A DNA stretch of 64,000 bases from a virus, in IMG/VR virus record IMGVR_UViG_3300050821_002136, positions 32,001 to 96,000 of that record. The stretch is one strand, 5' to 3'. Of the stretch, positions 10,508 through 30,149 are shown in pieces (positions within the stretch are counted from its first letter, which is position 1; the number at the start of each line of letters is the position of its first letter). The notes under the pieces were generated by a model that did not search any database, was not told the origin of the DNA, and was given only the letters and a program-made list of their open reading frames with translations. A program made the translations under genes and the position numbers.

Positions 10508-10689
10508 TGACACCAGCGGACGTTATCAAGACAATAGAGGAGCTGGACCCTACGAAGGACTGCTGGTTCGTCAGACACAATGACGACCAGCTGGTGTACA
10601 TCGTAGGACATCTGCCTGATGGACAAAGAGTCTGTACAGCACTTCCCACAGCTATTCACAAAACTGAAATCAAACAGGAGAAACAATGA
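10504..10689 (+). CDS. Hypothetical protein
   Basis: GGAGG RBS; coupled on both sides. Confidence 0.6.
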   Translation: MMTPADVIKTIEELDPTKDCWFVRHNDDQLVYIVGHLPDGQRVCTALPTAIHKTEIKQEKQ

Positions 10690-11633
10690 GCGATGCACTG
10701 GTAGTACTGAACAACAACACAGCTATAATGTCTGGGGGCGTAGGTCTCGGCTCCTCGATTTTCAAAGCACGCCCTAGCTTTCTGGAACTGGTCCATAAGA
10801 GCAGCCGTCAAGAGAATGTGGTGCCCGGGGAATTCCGAGTGTTGTCAACGAATGAGCACCTGGGCAAGACCATTCGCGCAGTGCTCTTGGCCGTACCTCA
10901 GCCACGTCGTGAGTGGTACCGTGATCCCACCGTGTTCTCTAAGGACAACAAGGCATGCTTCTCGCTGGACGGCATTCGTCCACATGACCGTGCAGCTGAC
11001 CCTCAGGCCATGTACTGCGCAAAGTGCCCCAAGGGAGACATCAACTGGAACACATGGCGCAAGACGAAGGACCCCAAGGATCTCCCTCCGTGCGGTGCGT
11101 ATTGGCACTTGTTACTCGCTGATCGTGCAACACAGACGCCTTACTACCTCGACATCAAGGGCACAAGCGCTTCGCCCTTCAAGCAAGCCATGGAAACTCA
11201 GATGTCCGGCCTGCTTGCGAAGTTGATGGCCAATGTACGTGCTGAGAATAAGCAGCGCGGATATTCGCTAGTGACTCTGCAAAATCAGGAAACCGGAGAG
11301 CAGTTCCAAGAGTTCCGTACGACGCCTGGGTTTACTGTGCCAGAAACTGGGCAGCTCCCAATCTTGCCGATGCCGAACATCTTTGACATCAGCTTCGATA
11401 TCTACGCTGCAAGCAAAGATGGTGGACCGTACGTCATGGGCTTCAAGAACTTTGCTCTAATGAAGCCTGAGGACAAAGCTGAGTTTGGTCAGTTGTACCT
11501 CGACCTGATGCAGCAACGCGCAGAAGCACAGCAAGTGCAGCAGAACGACGAAGCCGAGGTAGATGCGGCAGTGGCCGAAGCCCCTGCTCAGCAAGCCAAG
11601 GGTGGTGAAGTTCTGCCGCCAATCACAATCTAA
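10686..11633 (+). CDS. Putative Zn-binding ssDNA-binding or annealing protein
   Basis: CFSLDG..P...Q...C..CP...W...C motif; acidic Gln/Ala tail; next to the exonuclease. Confidence 0.55.
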   Translation: MSDALVVLNNNTAIMSGGVGLGSSIFKARPSFLELVHKSSRQENVVPGEFRVLSTNEHLGKTIRAVLLAVPQPRREWYRDPTVFSKDNKACFSLDGIRPHDRAADPQAMYCAKCPKGDINWNTWRKTKDPKDLPPCGAYWHLLLADRATQTPYYLDIKGTSASPFKQAMETQMSGLLAKLMANVRAENKQRGYSLVTLQNQETGEQFQEFRTTPGFTVPETGQLPILPMPNIFDISFDIYAASKDGGPYVMGFKNFALMKPEDKAEFGQLYLDLMQQRAEAQQVQQNDEAEVDAAVAEAPAQQAKGGEVLPPITI

Positions 11634-11646
11634 AAAGGAGAAAATA

Positions 11647-11868
11647 ATGTTGAAAATAGAACTCAACGGGGAAAGGAACTATGAGCTTGCTAAGTTGTCA
11701 GCCAAGCTTATCGACGGAGACTTAGTGATCACTGACGAAACCGCTGGTTGGTCTCTGGTTGCTTTGCGTATCGTGGACAATAAGATCAACCTTGTGCGCT
11801 ACAACAGCATCGCTGATAAGAATTACAACACAGACAAACAGGGCAGGCTTGTAGAAGTGCCCGAGTAG
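11647..11868 (+). CDS. Hypothetical protein
   Basis: AAGGAG RBS; start at MLKIELNG. Confidence 0.7.
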   Translation: MLKIELNGERNYELAKLSAKLIDGDLVITDETAGWSLVALRIVDNKINLVRYNSIADKNYNTDKQGRLVEVPE

Positions 11869-11899
11869 GTCGTCGCGGCGACGTTAAGCCGATGGTGGA

Positions 11900-12014
11900 G
11901 GCGTGCGGTTCTACAGGGGGAGGGCTTAGCGGCCCTGGTGGAAATCTGAGCACTAAGGTGAGGCAAAGATGAAATCTCAGATATGAACTCCCTTCCCCTG
12001 TAGGGCCGTACGCC
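11900..12014 (+). ncRNA. Unassigned structured RNA element (25-bp closing stem with branched interior)
   Basis: 11900-11924 pairs fully with 11990-12014; all 4 non-Watson-Crick pairs are G.U on the + strand; inner ATCTGAG/CTCAGAT stem. Confidence 0.6.
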
Positions 12015-12025
12015 CCGTAAGTTAT

Positions 12026-12325
12026 GGATGTATGAAGCTGAGGTACGAGTTGCAAGACCCGGTTTCGATACCGGCAGGTCCACCACAACGCTTCAGGTAT
12101 AACGGCATTACCGGCGTACACCCGGAGAGCGGGTCTCGCTGAAGCGTTTTGATGGGCCTGAAAGGTTTCGATTGCGACTACGAGACAGCAGTGGACATCC
12201 CGAGATGACGTGGCCCTCGTTAAAAGGACACGTAACAACCAACCGCGACTGAAAAGCCGATGGTTATGGCAGCTGCCGCAGGGCGCTAGCCATAGGGTGG
12301 GCAGGGTCAAACCTGCCCTACCGAT
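12026..12325 (+). ncRNA. ssrA: Circularly permuted (two-piece) tmRNA: acceptor piece ~12026-12085, intervening segment 12086-12153, coding piece 12154-~12325
   Basis: 3' end GAC-CCGGT-TTCGAT-ACCGG-CAGGTCC-A-CCA precedes the 5' end GGGCCTG-AAAGGTTTCGA. The 7-bp acceptor stem has G3.U70 and discriminator A. Helix 2 pairings, PK1 and a tag ORF are present. Outer boundaries are approximate. Confidence 0.9.
12245..12289 (+). other. tmRNA tag reading frame (A)ATEKPMVMAAAAGR*
   Basis: GCG resume codon 11 nt after PK1, preceded by CAACC; ends TAG CCA TAG within helix 5 (TATGGC/GCCATA). Confidence 0.8.
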
Positions 12326-12328
12326 TTT
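12296..12328 (+). terminator. Hairpin ending the tmRNA coding piece (terminator-like)
   Basis: GGGCAGG-GTCAAA-CCTGCCC followed by a short T run. Confidence 0.55.
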
Positions 12329-12368
12329 AGATTCAGATGTACAAACCCAAACAGGAGAAACAACATCA

Positions 12369-12899
12369 ATGAAGTACCTTAGCTCCATCTTAGCAATTCT
12401 CGTTCTTTCCATTGCGGCCTTTTCTCAGGATTACCCAGTAGGCCCGAACGTAGGCAAGGCAACCACGCCGTACGCAACCACCAACTTCTCGGCCACATTC
12501 GACGGCCCAGTGACTGCAATGTTGCCAACGAGGAATGGCGAGAACACCAGCACCGATTACAAGTACGTTTCTCAGAACGGCAAAGTTGCAGAAGCAGTCA
12601 CGGTTCGCTTTATTGACCATGACATTGCTGTGGACTATACGTCCTCCGACTTCTACGCCAACGACGACCGCACGGGCGGCACGGTAGACACGGCTAACAC
12701 CAGTCATGATTCGTGGAATGGTGCGCCGTTCACTTATACGTACCGTACCTTTACGCTCGATGGTGTGATACTGACCAAGCGTACTCGTTACATCATCGTG
12801 AATGCTCGTGAGGCCATCTTCATTCAGCAAATCACGGCTGTTGGATATGAAGATCGGCCGGAATGGCTGGACTTCGAGTACTCGTTACGCATCAAGTGA
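12369..12899 (+). CDS. Secreted/periplasmic protein
   Basis: AGGAG RBS; signal peptide MKYLSSILAILVLSIAAFSQ. Confidence 0.75.
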   Translation: MKYLSSILAILVLSIAAFSQDYPVGPNVGKATTPYATTNFSATFDGPVTAMLPTRNGENTSTDYKYVSQNGKVAEAVTVRFIDHDIAVDYTSSDFYANDDRTGGTVDTANTSHDSWNGAPFTYTYRTFTLDGVILTKRTRYIIVNAREAIFIQQITAVGYEDRPEWLDFEYSLRIK

Positions 12900-12908
12900 A
12901 CGAACAAT

Positions 12909-12937
12909 GGGGAGGGTCAAACCTCCCCTCTATTTTT
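12909..12937 (+). terminator. Rho-independent terminator
   Basis: GGGGAGG-GTCAAA-CCTCCCC followed by TCTATTTTT. Confidence 0.7.
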
Positions 12938-12955
12938 CTGTTAAGGAGGAAAATA

Positions 12956-13132
12956 ATGGAAGAACATGTCAAAAACATTCTGGCTTTAGCCTGGGCCTCG
13001 TTCGATACGCCGCTCTGGCACGCTCGTAAAGAGATGCAAGAATACCTTGAGAAACATTTTGAGCTAAAGAAAGTAGCCACAGCTGCCGACGCTGCGGAAG
13101 GTTGGAACGGGCGCATGCCTAAGTACTTCTAA
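12956..13132 (+). CDS. Hypothetical protein
   Basis: AAGGAGG RBS. Confidence 0.7.
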   Translation: MEEHVKNILALAWASFDTPLWHARKEMQEYLEKHFELKKVATAADAAEGWNGRMPKYF

Positions 13133-13140
13133 GGAGAACC

Positions 13141-13971
13141 ATGGAGCCCATTGTAATCGTAGGAGAAGCCGTAGCAGGCCGAGAAGCCAAGCTAGCCGCT
13201 CTGCGTAAACGCATACGAGCCTTGGCCAATGACATAGAGATAAACACCTTCGACTTGGCTGAGGCTTTTTTTCAAGCTCAGGAATCCCATTGCTATGTTG
13301 AGTGGGGCTTCGAATCTCTCGGTGAGTACGCGTCGTTGGAGCTAGGCATCAAGCATAGGAAGGCGCAGTACCTCGCTCGAATAGTTCGTGTCTGCCGTGC
13401 CTGTGGAGTAGCTAGGAAGGACTACGAGCCTGTAGGTGTATCCAAGCTTCGCGTCATTACAGGGTTGGACCCTGAAAGCTCCTTCTTCAACACAGAGACA
13501 AAGACCAACGAGCCCATGGTTGAGCATATCGTGCGCCTTATTGCTGAAGCTCCTGAACTAACCACAGTTGAAGTAGAGGACGAAGTGCAGCGGCTGATGG
13601 GCAACGTGGGCGAGAATGCCATGGTGACTAAGAGCTACCGAGTCACCAAGAGTGCCTATGAGAACACCGTGCAACGTTGCTTCGAGTCAGTACGGAAGCG
13701 ACTAGGCAGCAAAGGCCGGGACGGCACAGGTGCAGCCGTGGAGTATACGGACGGCAATTGCTTGGAAGCTGTCTGCGCCGAGTACAATAGTGATCCAAGA
13801 AATTTCATGGAAGAGCTGGACGAAAGCAAAGAACAAATCGAAGTACCGGAGGAACCAAATGCACACATTAGAGATGTCACCGGAGCACCCGTTCATGTGG
13901 CTAGCGAGGAAGCAGCACAAGACTCACTTCCGAGAACGCACGTCCCGTTCATCGTACCTACCGAAGACTAA
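13141..13971 (+). CDS. Hypothetical protein, probably DNA-binding (helical/HTH-like)
   Basis: AAGGAG RBS; Y.EWGFESLGEYA..ELGI..RKAQYL..I pattern. Confidence 0.6.
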   Translation: MEPIVIVGEAVAGREAKLAALRKRIRALANDIEINTFDLAEAFFQAQESHCYVEWGFESLGEYASLELGIKHRKAQYLARIVRVCRACGVARKDYEPVGVSKLRVITGLDPESSFFNTETKTNEPMVEHIVRLIAEAPELTTVEVEDEVQRLMGNVGENAMVTKSYRVTKSAYENTVQRCFESVRKRLGSKGRDGTGAAVEYTDGNCLEAVCAEYNSDPRNFMEELDESKEQIEVPEEPNAHIRDVTGAPVHVASEEAAQDSLPRTHVPFIVPTED

Positions 13972-14245
13972 TACCCTGGGTCTCTATGATGGAAGCGCAG
14001 AAGCCCGGGCTATCGTGAACAACGCTATGCAAGAAGTGGAAGCAAGAGAAGTGCTTGCTGCTTGTATACTTTTGCATGTCCTGCACTATCTAAAAGGTAT
14101 GGACACTGTGGAAGGCTCTTTTACTGCTGAGTTCTTTGAGGGTACTGATCCTTTCAAAGAGGAAGAAAAGGACTTTGAAGACTCCGTGGAAAAGAACAAA
14201 GAATTACTGGAGAAACTCTCTGATGAGTCTACGTCTGGAAGTTGA
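13859..14245 (+). CDS. Hypothetical protein
   Basis: GGAGG RBS before MHTLEMSPEHPF; overlaps the upstream acidic tail. Confidence 0.55.
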   Translation: MHTLEMSPEHPFMWLARKQHKTHFRERTSRSSYLPKTNTLGLYDGSAEARAIVNNAMQEVEAREVLAACILLHVLHYLKGMDTVEGSFTAEFFEGTDPFKEEEKDFEDSVEKNKELLEKLSDESTSGS

Positions 14246-18000: not shown

Positions 18001-18243
18001 ATGAAAACAAAAGCCATCATTGAAGGTTTACAAGTCCTTCTTCCATTCTACAACGACCAAGACGGGTTCCATAACGGAGCTGAACATGATACCTTCTATG
18101 CTTACGCTACAGACACTGAGCTGCCAGAAGCAGCGGTAAAATGGTTGATAGAATTGGGATGGTTTCAACCGGATGTTGAGTATGAAGACGACTTCTTGCC
18201 AGAACATTACGATCCCTCTGAGGGGTGGGTAGCTTACTTATAG
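18001..18243 (+). CDS. Phage hypothetical protein
   Basis: AAGGAG RBS; AEHD.FY...L.ELGW motif. Confidence 0.7.
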   Translation: MKTKAIIEGLQVLLPFYNDQDGFHNGAEHDTFYAYATDTELPEAAVKWLIELGWFQPDVEYEDDFLPEHYDPSEGWVAYL

Positions 18244-18254
18244 AAAGGGTAACC

Positions 18255-20303
18255 ATGTCGAAAGCAATTCCCGAGAACCTGCGAACCAGCAACGCTCTGA
18301 AATTCATAATCGAGCAAGGCTGGAACTGGCAGGGCGATGGCAGCGGTGGACAAATTCAAATAGAGACGTGCCCTTTCTGCAACAAAAAAGACTTCAAGCT
18401 CTATATGGCAGTCGGAGACCCAAGAGAGACCAGTAGAGATGGCCTTTGGTTCTGTCACCACGGTTCCTGCGCTAAGACTGGGAACCTCCGTACGCTGGCC
18501 GAACATGTAGGCGTACGCATAGCCGGTGTGGACTCGCGCAAGGAGTGGGCCGGGAGTGGGGACAGCAAGCCGGACACTCTGCCTGATGTTGAGCTGTGCC
18601 ATGCAACCCTACTAGGTGACGCGGAAGCTATGGATTATTTGTTGAACGTCAGAGGCTTCTCAAAGGAGATCATTGAAAAACAAAAGCTTGGACTCAAAGA
18701 GAAAGTCTGGTTCCGTGAAGCGGGGGAATCGAAAGCCCTGGTCATACCCTATCTCGTTGGCGGAAATGTTGTCTTCGCAAAATTCAGAACGCTTCCTCCG
18801 AAACCAAAAGACTTTGTCACACCTTCTGGCTGGGAAGCTCCTCTCTATAATGGAGAAATTCTCCAAGAAGGACTCAACGAAGTCATCTTCGTAGAGGGCG
18901 AAGCAGACGCCATAAGTATGATGTCTAATGGTGTAGAGAATGTTGTGGGCGTACCTGGGGCCAATGTTAAGAAGGCCGCATGGATCGACACTCTGGACAA
19001 GATCGCACCTAAGAAGATCTACATCCTCTACGACAACGACAAAGTAGGCAAGAAGGCCGCGCAGGAAATCGCATCACGCATCGGCATAGACAAGTGCCTG
19101 AAGCTGGTGCTTCCGCCATTCAGCGTAACGCTAGAAGGCGTAACCCGAGACGGCAAGGACATCAATGAGTGGTTCCGCTACGGTGGGGGAACCTTAGAGG
19201 TGTTCAACAAACTGAAGGAGTCCGCAGTCCTGTTCGATGTGACTGGTGTGACCTCTTCAGTGGATGCCTTGACGCAGCTCGAAGACGAATTGAATGGCAA
19301 GGTTGATCTGGCCCCTAAGTACGTATTCCAATGGCCGGAACTCAACAAGCTGATCGGAATGGAAGACGGTGATGTGCTCGATATCGTTGCGCCGGAGAAG
19401 GTAGGGAAGACGACCTTCGGCCTCAACATACTTGACCACATGGTCGCCGCATACGGTGAGGACGGCCTGCTTGTGTGCCTTGAGATGACTCAGGCTAGAC
19501 TGGCACGCAAGTGGGTTGCCCTCGTGACTGGCTTCGAAGACACTCTGACTGAACCTGGGACAGAGGAATCGAAGCTTAAGTTAGCTGAGCTGAAGGGGTG
19601 CGTAGTAAAGGCACGCTCGATTCAACAGAGTCGTGGCGCAGACCTGTACTTCGCATACCCTCAGCTTGTGAAGGAGCCAGAAGATGTTTACAAACTTGTC
19701 CGAGACTGCATTCGTCGTTACGGTGTCAAATGGGTCATGTTTGATAATCTGCAAAGATTGTGCGATGATACACTCAAAAACCAAGGCCACCGTACAGTGC
19801 AGCTTTCTCAAATCTCCAAAAACTTCGCAAAACTTGCCAAGGACTACCGTATCAAACTTATTCGCATCCTTCAGCCCAAACGAATAATGCCCGGGGCAAC
19901 CATCAGCACCAACGACGTAGACGGAAGCTCACAGATTGCTAAGGACTGCGATGGCATGATAACGTTGTGGCGCAGTGTAGTAGGAGAGATGAAGAAGTCT
20001 GAATGGGAGACCCAACAACAAGGCTTCGAAGAAAGCAATGAATCCTTCGAGCCTGTCATGAAGGTCACCGTGGGGCTCTCTCGCTATTCAGCTGGAGGCT
20101 CTACTAAGCTCTTCTATGATGGAGCCCGATCCCAGGTGCGTTCACTGCCTGAAAGCCAAAAGGCACAGATGAATGCGAACCGAGACTACAACAAGCTGGT
20201 AGCCAATAACATCCCCATGGAAGGTGGAGGTGTTCTGCATGTCGTACCAGAGGAAAACCAAGCCGTAGCCGTCGTTGCAACAGAGTCAGACATCACAATC
20301 TAA
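18255..20303 (+). CDS. Bifunctional DNA primase-helicase (T7 gp4/Twinkle-like)
   Basis: Zn ribbon CPFC...CHHGSC; TOPRIM EGEAD, DND and KDINE; SF4 Walker A APEKVGKTT, LEM, FDNLQ. Confidence 0.92.
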   Translation: MSKAIPENLRTSNALKFIIEQGWNWQGDGSGGQIQIETCPFCNKKDFKLYMAVGDPRETSRDGLWFCHHGSCAKTGNLRTLAEHVGVRIAGVDSRKEWAGSGDSKPDTLPDVELCHATLLGDAEAMDYLLNVRGFSKEIIEKQKLGLKEKVWFREAGESKALVIPYLVGGNVVFAKFRTLPPKPKDFVTPSGWEAPLYNGEILQEGLNEVIFVEGEADAISMMSNGVENVVGVPGANVKKAAWIDTLDKIAPKKIYILYDNDKVGKKAAQEIASRIGIDKCLKLVLPPFSVTLEGVTRDGKDINEWFRYGGGTLEVFNKLKESAVLFDVTGVTSSVDALTQLEDELNGKVDLAPKYVFQWPELNKLIGMEDGDVLDIVAPEKVGKTTFGLNILDHMVAAYGEDGLLVCLEMTQARLARKWVALVTGFEDTLTEPGTEESKLKLAELKGCVVKARSIQQSRGADLYFAYPQLVKEPEDVYKLVRDCIRRYGVKWVMFDNLQRLCDDTLKNQGHRTVQLSQISKNFAKLAKDYRIKLIRILQPKRIMPGATISTNDVDGSSQIAKDCDGMITLWRSVVGEMKKSEWETQQQGFEESNESFEPVMKVTVGLSRYSAGGSTKLFYDGARSQVRSLPESQKAQMNANRDYNKLVANNIPMEGGGVLHVVPEENQAVAVVATESDITI

Positions 20304-28833: not shown

Positions 28834-29127
28834 ATGCTAGACGGAGAGAAGATCAATCACGCACTCAAGACGGGTACCATGGATGACATGGGCACACGCA
28901 TGGAGCACCTAACACAGCTCTATGAGCTTTGGAAGACTGGGCTGGATGTCATAGAACGCTTCGATAAGAACAGTCCTTTCTACGAAGAAAGGAAGCAAGA
29001 ACTTGAAAGTGCCTTGAAGTTGCTGGCTTATCATTTTGAGAAGGACTACTCAGAAAATTCCTACAGGCAAGCGGTAGATACCCTTCCTGCAAACGCAGAG
29101 GACTTCAAGGACCCGGAGAAATCATAA
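28834..29127 (+). CDS. Hypothetical protein
   Basis: AAGGA RBS. Confidence 0.65.
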   Translation: MLDGEKINHALKTGTMDDMGTRMEHLTQLYELWKTGLDVIERFDKNSPFYEERKQELESALKLLAYHFEKDYSENSYRQAVDTLPANAEDFKDPEKS

Positions 29128-30149
29128 TGAGCACAGCTGGAACGCAGCGCAAACTCGACATCACGCAGAGCAGCAAGCTTTATGCACAACTAGCCAAGGA
29201 CTTCTCAGCTAAGATCGTAGGCCAAGAGGAAGCTACTCAGGCCCTTCTGAATATTGTTGAGTCCCACCAAGCAGGCTTCTCGGATGCCAGCCACCCCGCT
29301 GGCGTAGCTCTGTTCCTCGGTCCAACAGGCACTGGCAAGACGCTAGTGGCTGAGACCCTGGCCGCATCCTTACTTGGTAGCAAGCTCGCCTGCCTGCGTA
29401 TTGACTGCGCTGAGTACCAGCACGGACATGAGATCGCCAAATTAGTGGGATCTCCCCCGGGATACTTGGGCCATCGTGAGACGCACCCGCTGCTGACACA
29501 GGAAGCACTTAACCAGTGGCACACGGACAAGATGAAGCTTTCCATTCTTCTCTTCGACGAGATCGAGAAGGCCAGTGATACGCTCTGGGCTTTGCTACTA
29601 GGCATCCTCGATAATGCTACGGTGACCTTAGGAGACAACCGCAAGGTTAACTTTAGCAATGTGATCATTGTCATGACAAGCAACCTCGGCGCACGTAAGA
29701 TGTCTAGTCGTGACATAGGATTCATGGACCCATCCGAAGAGACTGACAACGCTCGCATGGAGACGCAGGCCAGGAGCGCAGCAAAGAGCAAGTTCTCACC
29801 TGAGTTCATGAATCGTTTGCAGTCCATAGTGGTCTTCAAGACTTTGTCCGAGGAGCAAATTGAGAACATCCTTGAACTTGAATTGAAGGCGCTAGAGTAT
29901 CGCTTGTTCATGGTCAGCAAACCGTTCTTCACCATAGCCGTATCACCTAAAGCCAAACGTACGTTGCTGGCTGAGGGCTACGACAAGGCCTACGGTGCGC
30001 GGTATCTCAAACGCACTATCGAGAGACGCATACAGCAGCCGCTGGCAAGACTAGCAGCCAGTGGGCAAGTAGCAGAGCACGACAAAATCATCATTGATGA
30101 CCTCGGAGACAAGAGCTTCGAGTTCTACGTACAGGGGAGAAACTTATGA
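29127..30149 (+). CDS. Stand-alone ClpA/ClpB D2-type AAA+ ATPase
   Basis: IVGQEEA, GPTGTGKT, LVGSPPGYLG, LLFDEIEKA, MTSNLG, FSPEFMNRL, YGARYLKR. Confidence 0.92.
   Translation: MSTAGTQRKLDITQSSKLYAQLAKDFSAKIVGQEEATQALLNIVESHQAGFSDASHPAGVALFLGPTGTGKTLVAETLAASLLGSKLACLRIDCAEYQHGHEIAKLVGSPPGYLGHRETHPLLTQEALNQWHTDKMKLSILLFDEIEKASDTLWALLLGILDNATVTLGDNRKVNFSNVIIVMTSNLGARKMSSRDIGFMDPSEETDNARMETQARSAAKSKFSPEFMNRLQSIVVFKTLSEEQIENILELELKALEYRLFMVSKPFFTIAVSPKAKRTLLAEGYDKAYGARYLKRTIERRIQQPLARLAASGQVAEHDKIIIDDLGDKSFEFYVQGRNL

Follow-up and report, generated by a model that had tools for sequence, protein, structure and literature searches.

A two-piece permuted tmRNA gene with a Gly-Arg tag end in a soil phage related to the Tunturiibacter phages

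Introduction

The window studied here is a stretch of 64,000 nucleotides, bases 32001–96000 of a 108,277-bp virus record of IMG/VR with a CheckV completeness of 98%, and it contains a circularly permuted tmRNA gene. With a probability of roughly 85% this gene is a functional two-piece ssrA, vertically inherited as a core gene of the ~100-kb soil phages related to the Tunturiibacter phages Tunturi 3 and Tunturi 4. The tag peptide encoded by it ends in Gly-Arg, which is the new point of this gene, and its interest rests mainly on this end and on the cultured relatives.

The permuted form in a phage is in itself not new, since two-piece phage tmRNAs have already been published. The phage tmRNA survey of 2014 contained one-piece forms only, and an earlier sequence-only reading of the window also regarded the known phage tmRNAs as one-piece. 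This view is outdated, because in Buchholz et al. 2022 study (PMC9004378) the two-piece ssrA of phage Melnitz was described and 53 two-piece forms (50 aquatic) were counted among 133 unique phage tmRNAs, and at least 32 further permuted genes were obtained here by an IMG/VR pattern scan with the acceptor stem of the window (27 confirmed by ARAGORN among the matches listed). The permuted family model RF04321 originates from a 2025 database paper, which holds 79 phage tmRNAs. The present results indicate that the permuted tmRNA is a conserved core gene in a soil phage group and not only in marine phages.

Identification and Architecture of the Gene

When the whole window was searched with Rfam 15, a single family exceeded its cut-off, tmRNA_permuted (RF04321), whose match at 12026–12283 scores 66.6 bits (gathering score 47; E 1.2e-10 over the 64 kb searched). 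This supports the proposal of the sequence-only reading that a circularly permuted tmRNA gene is present in the phage, and the permuted-model search which it had suggested as a check is passed over the full model (1–213); on inspection of the sequence each pairing and element listed by it was also found in its place. The gene order is permuted: the T arm, the acceptor 3' strand, and CCA (12083–12085) precede G1 (12154), with a 68-nt spacer in between (Table 1).

Table 1: Elements of the permuted tmRNA gene and their positions in the window.
Feature	Position	Strand	Description
Acceptor piece	12026..12085	+	60 nt; RF04321 alignment, sequence, covariation over 10 orthologues, cofolding
Helix 2, 3' strands	12026-12030, 12037-12040, 12048-12055	+	In acceptor piece; followed by linker GAC
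T arm	12059-12074	+	CCGGT 12059-12063, loop TTCGAT 12064-12069, ACCGG 12070-12074
Acceptor 3' strand	12075-12081	+	CAGGTCC; then discriminator A 12082 and encoded CCA 12083-12085
Intervening segment	12086..12153	+	68 nt; 10-bp closing stem AACGCTTCAG/CTGAAGCGTT, two inner hairpins; fold -28.5 kcal/mol, z -4.0
Coding piece	12154..12325	+	~172 nt
Acceptor 5' strand	12154-12160	+	GGGCCTG, with G3; sequence
D-loop analogue	12161-12171	+	AAAGGTTTCGA; in coding piece
Helix 2, 5' strands	12172-12179, 12186-12192, 12196-12200	+	In coding piece; helix 2a: TTGCGACT 12172-12179 with AGTTGCAA 12048-12055, 8 bp including one G.U; helix 2b: CAGC 12186-12189 with GCTG 12037-12040 (CAGU register at 12189-12192 equally possible); closing helix: CATCC 12196-12200 with GGATG 12026-12030
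PK1	12201..12233	+	4 + 5 bp, just upstream of resume codon; S1 CGAG 12201-12204/CTCG 12216-12219; S2 ACGTG 12208-12212/CACGT 12229-12233
Tag reading frame	12245..12289	+	Resume codon GCG 12245 (position set by RF04321 alignment), 14 codons, TAG 12287-12289; ATEKPMVMAAAAGR
Helix 5	12265..12294	+	Hairpin holding end of tag frame and stop codon; MFE fold
Terminal hairpin	12296..12322	+	GGTGGGCAGG/CCTGCCC(T)ACC, then GATTTTAG; fold; likely 3' end or terminator of coding piece

The acceptor stem is fully paired (7/7), contains the G3.U70 alanine identity pair, and leads into the A + CCA end, and the T arm combines a 5-bp stem with a loop of 6 nt versus the canonical 7 nt. The molecule is compact and possesses PK1 only, just as had been described from the sequence. 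RNAcofold of the two proposed pieces recovered the acceptor stem, P2a (8 bp), P2b (4 bp), and the closing helix as intermolecular pairs, with a ddG of -17.4 kcal/mol versus -7.0 +/- 3.2 for shuffled acceptor pieces, and folding of the spacer, helix 5, and terminal hairpin is much more stable than that of shuffled sequences (z about -4). The hairpins at 12300–12317 and 12910–12927 agree in loop and flanking bases, GG..GGGTCAAACC..CC (chance expectation 0.03); the latter of the two follows the next gene, carries a T run, and looks like an intrinsic terminator, so that the terminal hairpin of the tmRNA may double as a phage terminator.

Among the other models, standard tmRNA (RF00023) gave no match on the native record, no match of the window to alpha_tmRNA (RF01849, cut-off 50 bits) was reported in an E-value search, and beta_tmRNA (RF01850), the best lineage-specific model, reached 35 bits against a cut-off of 84 and was not passed. 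ARAGORN, also named as a check by the sequence-only reading, called nothing in the window, either in the native or in the manually de-permuted sequence. When applied to nine relatives, it called five as permuted (L027, L022, L020, L021, and L030) with tags identical to the by-eye readings, and the miss in the window is thus a matter of tool sensitivity and not of gene absence. In the opposite direction, one locus of an Acidobacteriaceae genome (L198; G085:C3:125804-126054) was matched by RF04321 with 48.9 bits, where it overlaps the 5' part of a standard one-piece tmRNA (ARAGORN tag ANTELALAA), and represents a false "permuted" call; scores near 47 are therefore unsafe, while 66.6 bits is well clear of them. 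The practical lesson is that half of the soil-phage tmRNA family escapes ARAGORN, and that RF04321 cross-matches standard tmRNA genes just over its cut-off. It is concluded that the window gene is a real, selected tmRNA gene.

Genomic Setting

The gene lies mid-genome in an intergenic region between two genes (11869–12368), where no credible open reading frame was found, and is surrounded by phage replication genes, which encode a helicase, ParB-like protein, exonuclease, primase/helicase, RNA ligase, UvsX-like recombinase, and Clp-type ATPase; a structural arm occupies the opposite strand. Across the whole 108-kb record no SmpB, tyrosine integrase, ArfB-like gene, or standard tmRNA was found. 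The earlier remark that no smpB is visible thus holds beyond the window, and host SmpB would be required. The comparison of positions 11000–14000 of the window with 50,697 phage records by blastn gave zero matches, and the relatives were recovered at the protein level only.

Between the upstream stop codon and the tmRNA there is a long near-perfect hairpin of 150 nt (11869–12020; MFE -73.8 kcal/mol, z -4.9), which is single-copy in the phage genome and has a short form in L025 (GGAGGCGCAC...GTGCGCCCC). It was rejected as a tmRNA component, being missing from the orthologous loci L021, L022, and L027 and single-copy, and may be a candidate processing or termination element. Another gene of the window (29127–30149) encodes a stand-alone 340-aa AAA+ protein that matches only the D2 half of ClpB/ClpA (AAA_2 + ClpB_D2-small), with 249 bits for ClpB and 241 bits for ClpA, both far under the full-length cut-offs; in Tunturi 3 an "ATPase" is annotated at the corresponding place. 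Any connection between this Clp-D2-like ATPase and the unusual tag would be pure speculation.

Orthologues, Synteny, and Covariation

Relatives were retrieved from IMG/VR with the neighbouring protein (10686–11633) and the primase/helicase (18225–20303). RF04321 matched all four related records with completeness of at least 90% and 8 of 16 records overall, the remaining ones being short fragments. A homologue of 10686–11633 precedes the tmRNA in six IMG/VR relatives, and a homologue of 13141–13971 follows it in three of these six and in Tunturi 4. The tmRNA is an orthologous, syntenic core gene of the phage group, found in the same place in the four near-complete IMG/VR relatives and Tunturi 4.

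Compensatory changes, a check also named by the sequence-only reading, were found in the acceptor stem, T stem, and helix 2 of 10 orthologues and in PK1. The acceptor stem is paired 7/7 in each orthologue, with invariant G3.U70 and covarying positions 4–6, and the T stem is paired 5/5 in each; variable positions show two to four kinds of pair. The terminal hairpin, too, has compensatory stems in orthologues, GGGAGCC/GGCTCCC (L021), GGGCCGG/CCGGCCC (L025), and GGGGC/GCCCC (L020). For P2a (8/8 in the window) 84% pairing was obtained within sequences versus 53% with the strands swapped between sequences, and the closing helix, located 41–45 nt from the coding 5' end, is paired 5/5 in all 10 orthologues with up to four pair types per position. 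PK1 of L024 has the geometry of the window (S1 offsets 0–18, S2 7–32; by script) with other letters, AACGG/CCGTT and GTATGT/ACATAT; in L030 (Tunturi 4) a by-eye reading, from which the top call of the script differs, gives a similar geometry (CGAGT/ACTCG, offsets 0–16; TGTGA/TCACA, 5–29), and in L022, L023, and L027 PK1 is less clear. The spacer varies from 25 to 154 nt among the 10 orthologues and its sequence is unconserved, as is expected for a spacer.

The T loop differs within the orthologous family (TTCGAT, TTCGATT, TGCGAAT, TAGCATAT, or TCGTA; 5 to 8 nt), and L023 has a 6-nt loop like that of the window on a fully compensated stem (TCGGC/GCCGA versus CCGGT/ACCGG). The gene of L025 (1501–1706), with the 5-nt loop TCGTA and the tag ATDKPKAMAAHA, is without encoded CCA (ACAG follows the acceptor strand) and would therefore need CCA addition. 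Just downstream of the tmRNA of L023 the complete Rfam tRNA model is matched across 166 nt (1893–2058), which points to a tRNA gene interrupted by ~90 additional nt that may be an intron.

Tag Peptide Ending in Gly-Arg

The window tag ATEKPMVMAAAAGR has its resume codon GCG and stop codon TAG and ends in ...AAAAGR, not in Ala-Ala. Among the relatives, L023 and L027 end in ...KAMGAAAGR, L022 in ...AMGAAAGV, and L025 in ...AAHA, while L020, L021, L024, Tunturi 3, and Tunturi 4 have Ala-Ala ends. At least seven further distinct tmRNAs from phages or metagenomes, with differing backbones, share the AAAGR end. A metagenome scan with the AMGAAAGR coding pattern gave 10 matches, six of which are contigs with a permuted tmRNA (among them the contig of L027 and two with an identical tmRNA) with three acceptor stems and four T-loop types; the other four were rejected as tmRNA, being ordinary protein-coding matches. 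In the conserved tag end the glycine codons vary at the third position (GGG/GGC/GGT, then CGC), which points to selection on the peptide. Among the IMG/VR permuted-gene matches listed, 26 of the 27 other tags read end in Ala-Ala.

Recognition by ClpXP depends mainly on the terminal Ala-Ala-COO- (PMC7652416), and the tmRNA database retains tmRNAs with other tag ends or without any coding sequence; the Ala-Ala end defines the degron, not the RNA family. With Gly-Arg in place of Ala-Ala at its end, the tag probably does not send the rescued products to ClpXP by the usual route, and ribosomes would most likely be rescued without this targeting. A more far-reaching and only tentative proposal is that the AAAGR/AAAGV end was selected so that rescue deliberately proceeds without ClpXP marking, or for another reader (e.g., the phage Clp-D2-like ATPase), overriding the one-piece tmRNA of the host; as a bolder corollary, since one orthologous phage family combines alpha-like with beta-like tmRNA features, phages may carry the permuted form of the gene from one bacterial lineage to another. 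In nature the recurrent Gly-Arg tag corresponds to the degron-dead ssrA variants made in the laboratory and could separate ribosome rescue from proteolysis in infection.

Cultured Relatives and Probable Host

The nearest cultured phages are Tunturi 3 and Tunturi 4 of Tunturiibacter (Acidobacteriota), with primases 51% and 44% identical, respectively, which have seven or eight replication genes in common with the window at 30–51% identity and are matched by RF04321 with 63.3 and 79.2 bits, respectively. They offer a culturable system for asking what a phage gains from its own tmRNA. The Tunturi 4 gene (L030; PP885687.1, 43532–43941, minus strand) is an unannotated permuted tmRNA with the tag ANTVTSTIRNVASVRTGFFRSAEPITNRYAVAA, no tmRNA annotation being present among the displayed features around it. 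It lies directly downstream of a gene annotated as "RF-1 domain peptide chain release factor" (ArfB-like), and so two ribosome-rescue functions stand side by side. The Tunturi 3 gene (L031; PP885686.1, 88172–88396, minus strand), also an unannotated permuted tmRNA, has a tag ending in MLAA, adjoins two tRNA genes, and is distant from the replication module. In the paper on the Tunturi phages tmRNA is not mentioned, and "unknown" tRNAs are listed instead.

For 2144 Acidobacteriota genomes the tmRNA database gives 1589 standard, 0 alpha-permuted, and 5 beta-permuted tmRNAs. In the host sample examined here, 141 genomes from the family of an Acidobacteriaceae MAG, RF04321 matched in 36 genomes, but these matches were rejected as permuted genes: the ten best, including the sole one above the cut-off, are on or beside a standard tmRNA called by ARAGORN, with standard tags such as ANNNLALAA and ANTELALAA, and another match (in G017) overlaps the standard tmRNA of that genome. 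Because the best matches are standard tmRNA, the lower-scoring remainder is read as cross-matches too. The sampled Acidobacteriaceae thus appear to have one-piece tmRNA only, and the architecture and tag of the phage gene would be foreign to the host if this is an acidobacterium, which is likely from the kinship with the Tunturi phages (30–51% protein identity). As the likely hosts use one-piece tmRNA, the foreign architecture brought in by the phage would still have to function with SmpB, AlaRS, and RNase P of the host.

Comparison with Known Systems

Phage Melnitz (a Methylophilales phage) and the pelagimyophages (PMC9004378) likewise carry a complete permuted ssrA in the early/replication region of a lytic phage without integrase, and in Melnitz the architecture is also foreign to the host, an alpha-type gene being present in a phage of a gammaproteobacterial host (PMC9004378). 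In contrast to these marine T4-like myophages, the window phage belongs to a soil group related to Acidobacteriota phages, has the 6-nt T loop and the AAAGR tag end, and no glutamine riboswitch match was found in the window. The Buchholz et al. 2022 survey was ARAGORN-based, whereas the window gene escapes ARAGORN.

With the alphaproteobacterial two-piece tmRNA (RF01849; Caulobacter, Keiler et al. 2000, as cited in PMC9004378) the window gene shares the gene order, inter-piece helices, few pseudoknots, and the hairpin at the end of the coding piece, but it is under the cut-off, its T loop is TTCGAT and not GGC-type, its 3' loop is reduced to GTCAAA, and it has no Ala-Ala end. Resemblances to the betaproteobacterial form (RF01850; Sharkady and Williams 2004, as cited in PMC9004378) are the TTCGA-type T loop and the D-loop analogue GGTTTCGA, and IMG/VR permuted genes whose tags are beta-like, for example, ANDEQFALAA and ANDERFALAA, have the acceptor stem of the window (among the matches listed); however, the 35 bits of the window are far under 84, and no orthologue passes this cut-off (25.4 to 55.3 bits). 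The one-piece phage tmRNAs (mycobacteriophages Bxz1, Cali, and others; Bacillus phage G) and the DS6A RNA (PMC4131195) are, as here, phage-borne ssrA without phage SmpB, but those are of standard order or without tag frame, whereas the window gene is permuted with a full tag frame.

Proposed Expression and Alternative Explanations

No sigma-70-like promoter was found between the upstream gene and the RNA, and in L021, L022, and L027 the acceptor piece begins within ~10–25 nt of the upstream stop codon, for which cotranscription with the upstream genes and subsequent nucleolytic release would be the simplest reading. Having no promoter of its own, the RNA would be transcribed together with the upstream early/replication genes, and its tRNA-like domain would fold within the precursor. 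Host RNase P would then cut before G12154 and host nucleases would trim back to CCA 12085, the 68-nt spacer being discarded and the acceptor and coding pieces staying joined through three helix-2 segments as well as the acceptor stem. The RNA would presumably be charged via G3.U70 by host AlaRS, and with host SmpB and EF-Tu the charged RNA would enter stalled ribosomes, where translation would resume at GCG 12245 and append (A)ATEKPMVMAAAAGR.

A decaying pseudogene, or an attP/attB remnant of host ssrA in a virus contig, is very improbable: the gene is missed by ARAGORN, its T loop is one base short, and its Rfam score is below that of relatives (66.6 versus up to 102.6 bits), yet all helices are intact, CCA and G3.U70 are present, L023 has a 6-nt T loop as well on its compensated stem, and the locus is conserved in relatives and stands mid-genome, where replication genes surround it, in a record with a completeness of 98%. 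Since no tyrosine integrase was found in the record, the attP or host-flank reading was rejected; with SmpB, standard tmRNA, and ArfB-like gene also lacking, the locus is neither an attachment-site remnant nor a host flank. A non-tagging decoy, which would titrate host SmpB or compete with host tmRNA and so block host trans-translation, as proposed for the DS6A RNA, is less improbable but still unlikely. It would agree with a phage without SmpB, an architecture foreign to the likely host, a noncanonical tag end, and the precedent of mycobacteriophage DS6A, whose RNA consists of the tRNA-like domain only (PMC4131195, PMC11915505). For a decoy, however, PK1, the A-rich resume context, and an in-frame tag with its stop inside helix 5 are all superfluous, and so is the peptide-level conservation of ...AMGAAAGR across differing backbones.

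The functional two-piece ssrA remains the preferred reading. The sequence-only reading had suggested that the permutation may have arisen independently in a phage, for which a captured one-piece ssrA of the host would be a conceivable source; this is slightly more probable than the decoy, and nevertheless improbable. In its favour, none of the lineage-specific Rfam models is passed by the window, one-piece tmRNA is the only form in the likely host family, the T loop of the window is TTCG-type, and a search of 185,579 species genomes gave permuted genes with the acceptor stem of the window in Cupriavidus and a single Rickettsiales MAG only. Against it, two syntenic orthologues of this core gene, L020 and L024, pass alpha_tmRNA RF01849 (60.0 and 59.9 bits versus 50), and the alpha-type 3' hairpin loop (ACCT.G.AACAGAAC) is kept in L024 and Tunturi 3 and progressively reduced in L020, L021, L025, and the window. 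The full-length RF04321 match places the break at the topological place of the known lineages, and the phage tags (ANDN...) are unlike the Acidobacteriaceae tags. The T-loop type, which had been taken as a lineage mark, varies inside one orthologous family and loses this meaning. One orthologous phage gene therefore spans alpha-like and beta-like traits, with the window copy as a trimmed member of the series, and an independent permutation event is not needed.

In the scan of species genomes with the acceptor-stem pattern, spacers of 55–85 gave 0 matches and spacers of 20–50 gave 42 matches across many phyla. A patchy, mobile distribution based on these 42 matches was rejected, since a T arm or ARAGORN call is present only in six Cupriavidus loci and one Rickettsiales locus, the rest being chance matches. 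The Cupriavidus loci (L161, L172–L174, L176, and L187), some of them on small contigs, are permuted tmRNA genes with the acceptor stem of the window, and five of them have the tag ANDEKFALAA, while in L187 ARAGORN reads another frame.
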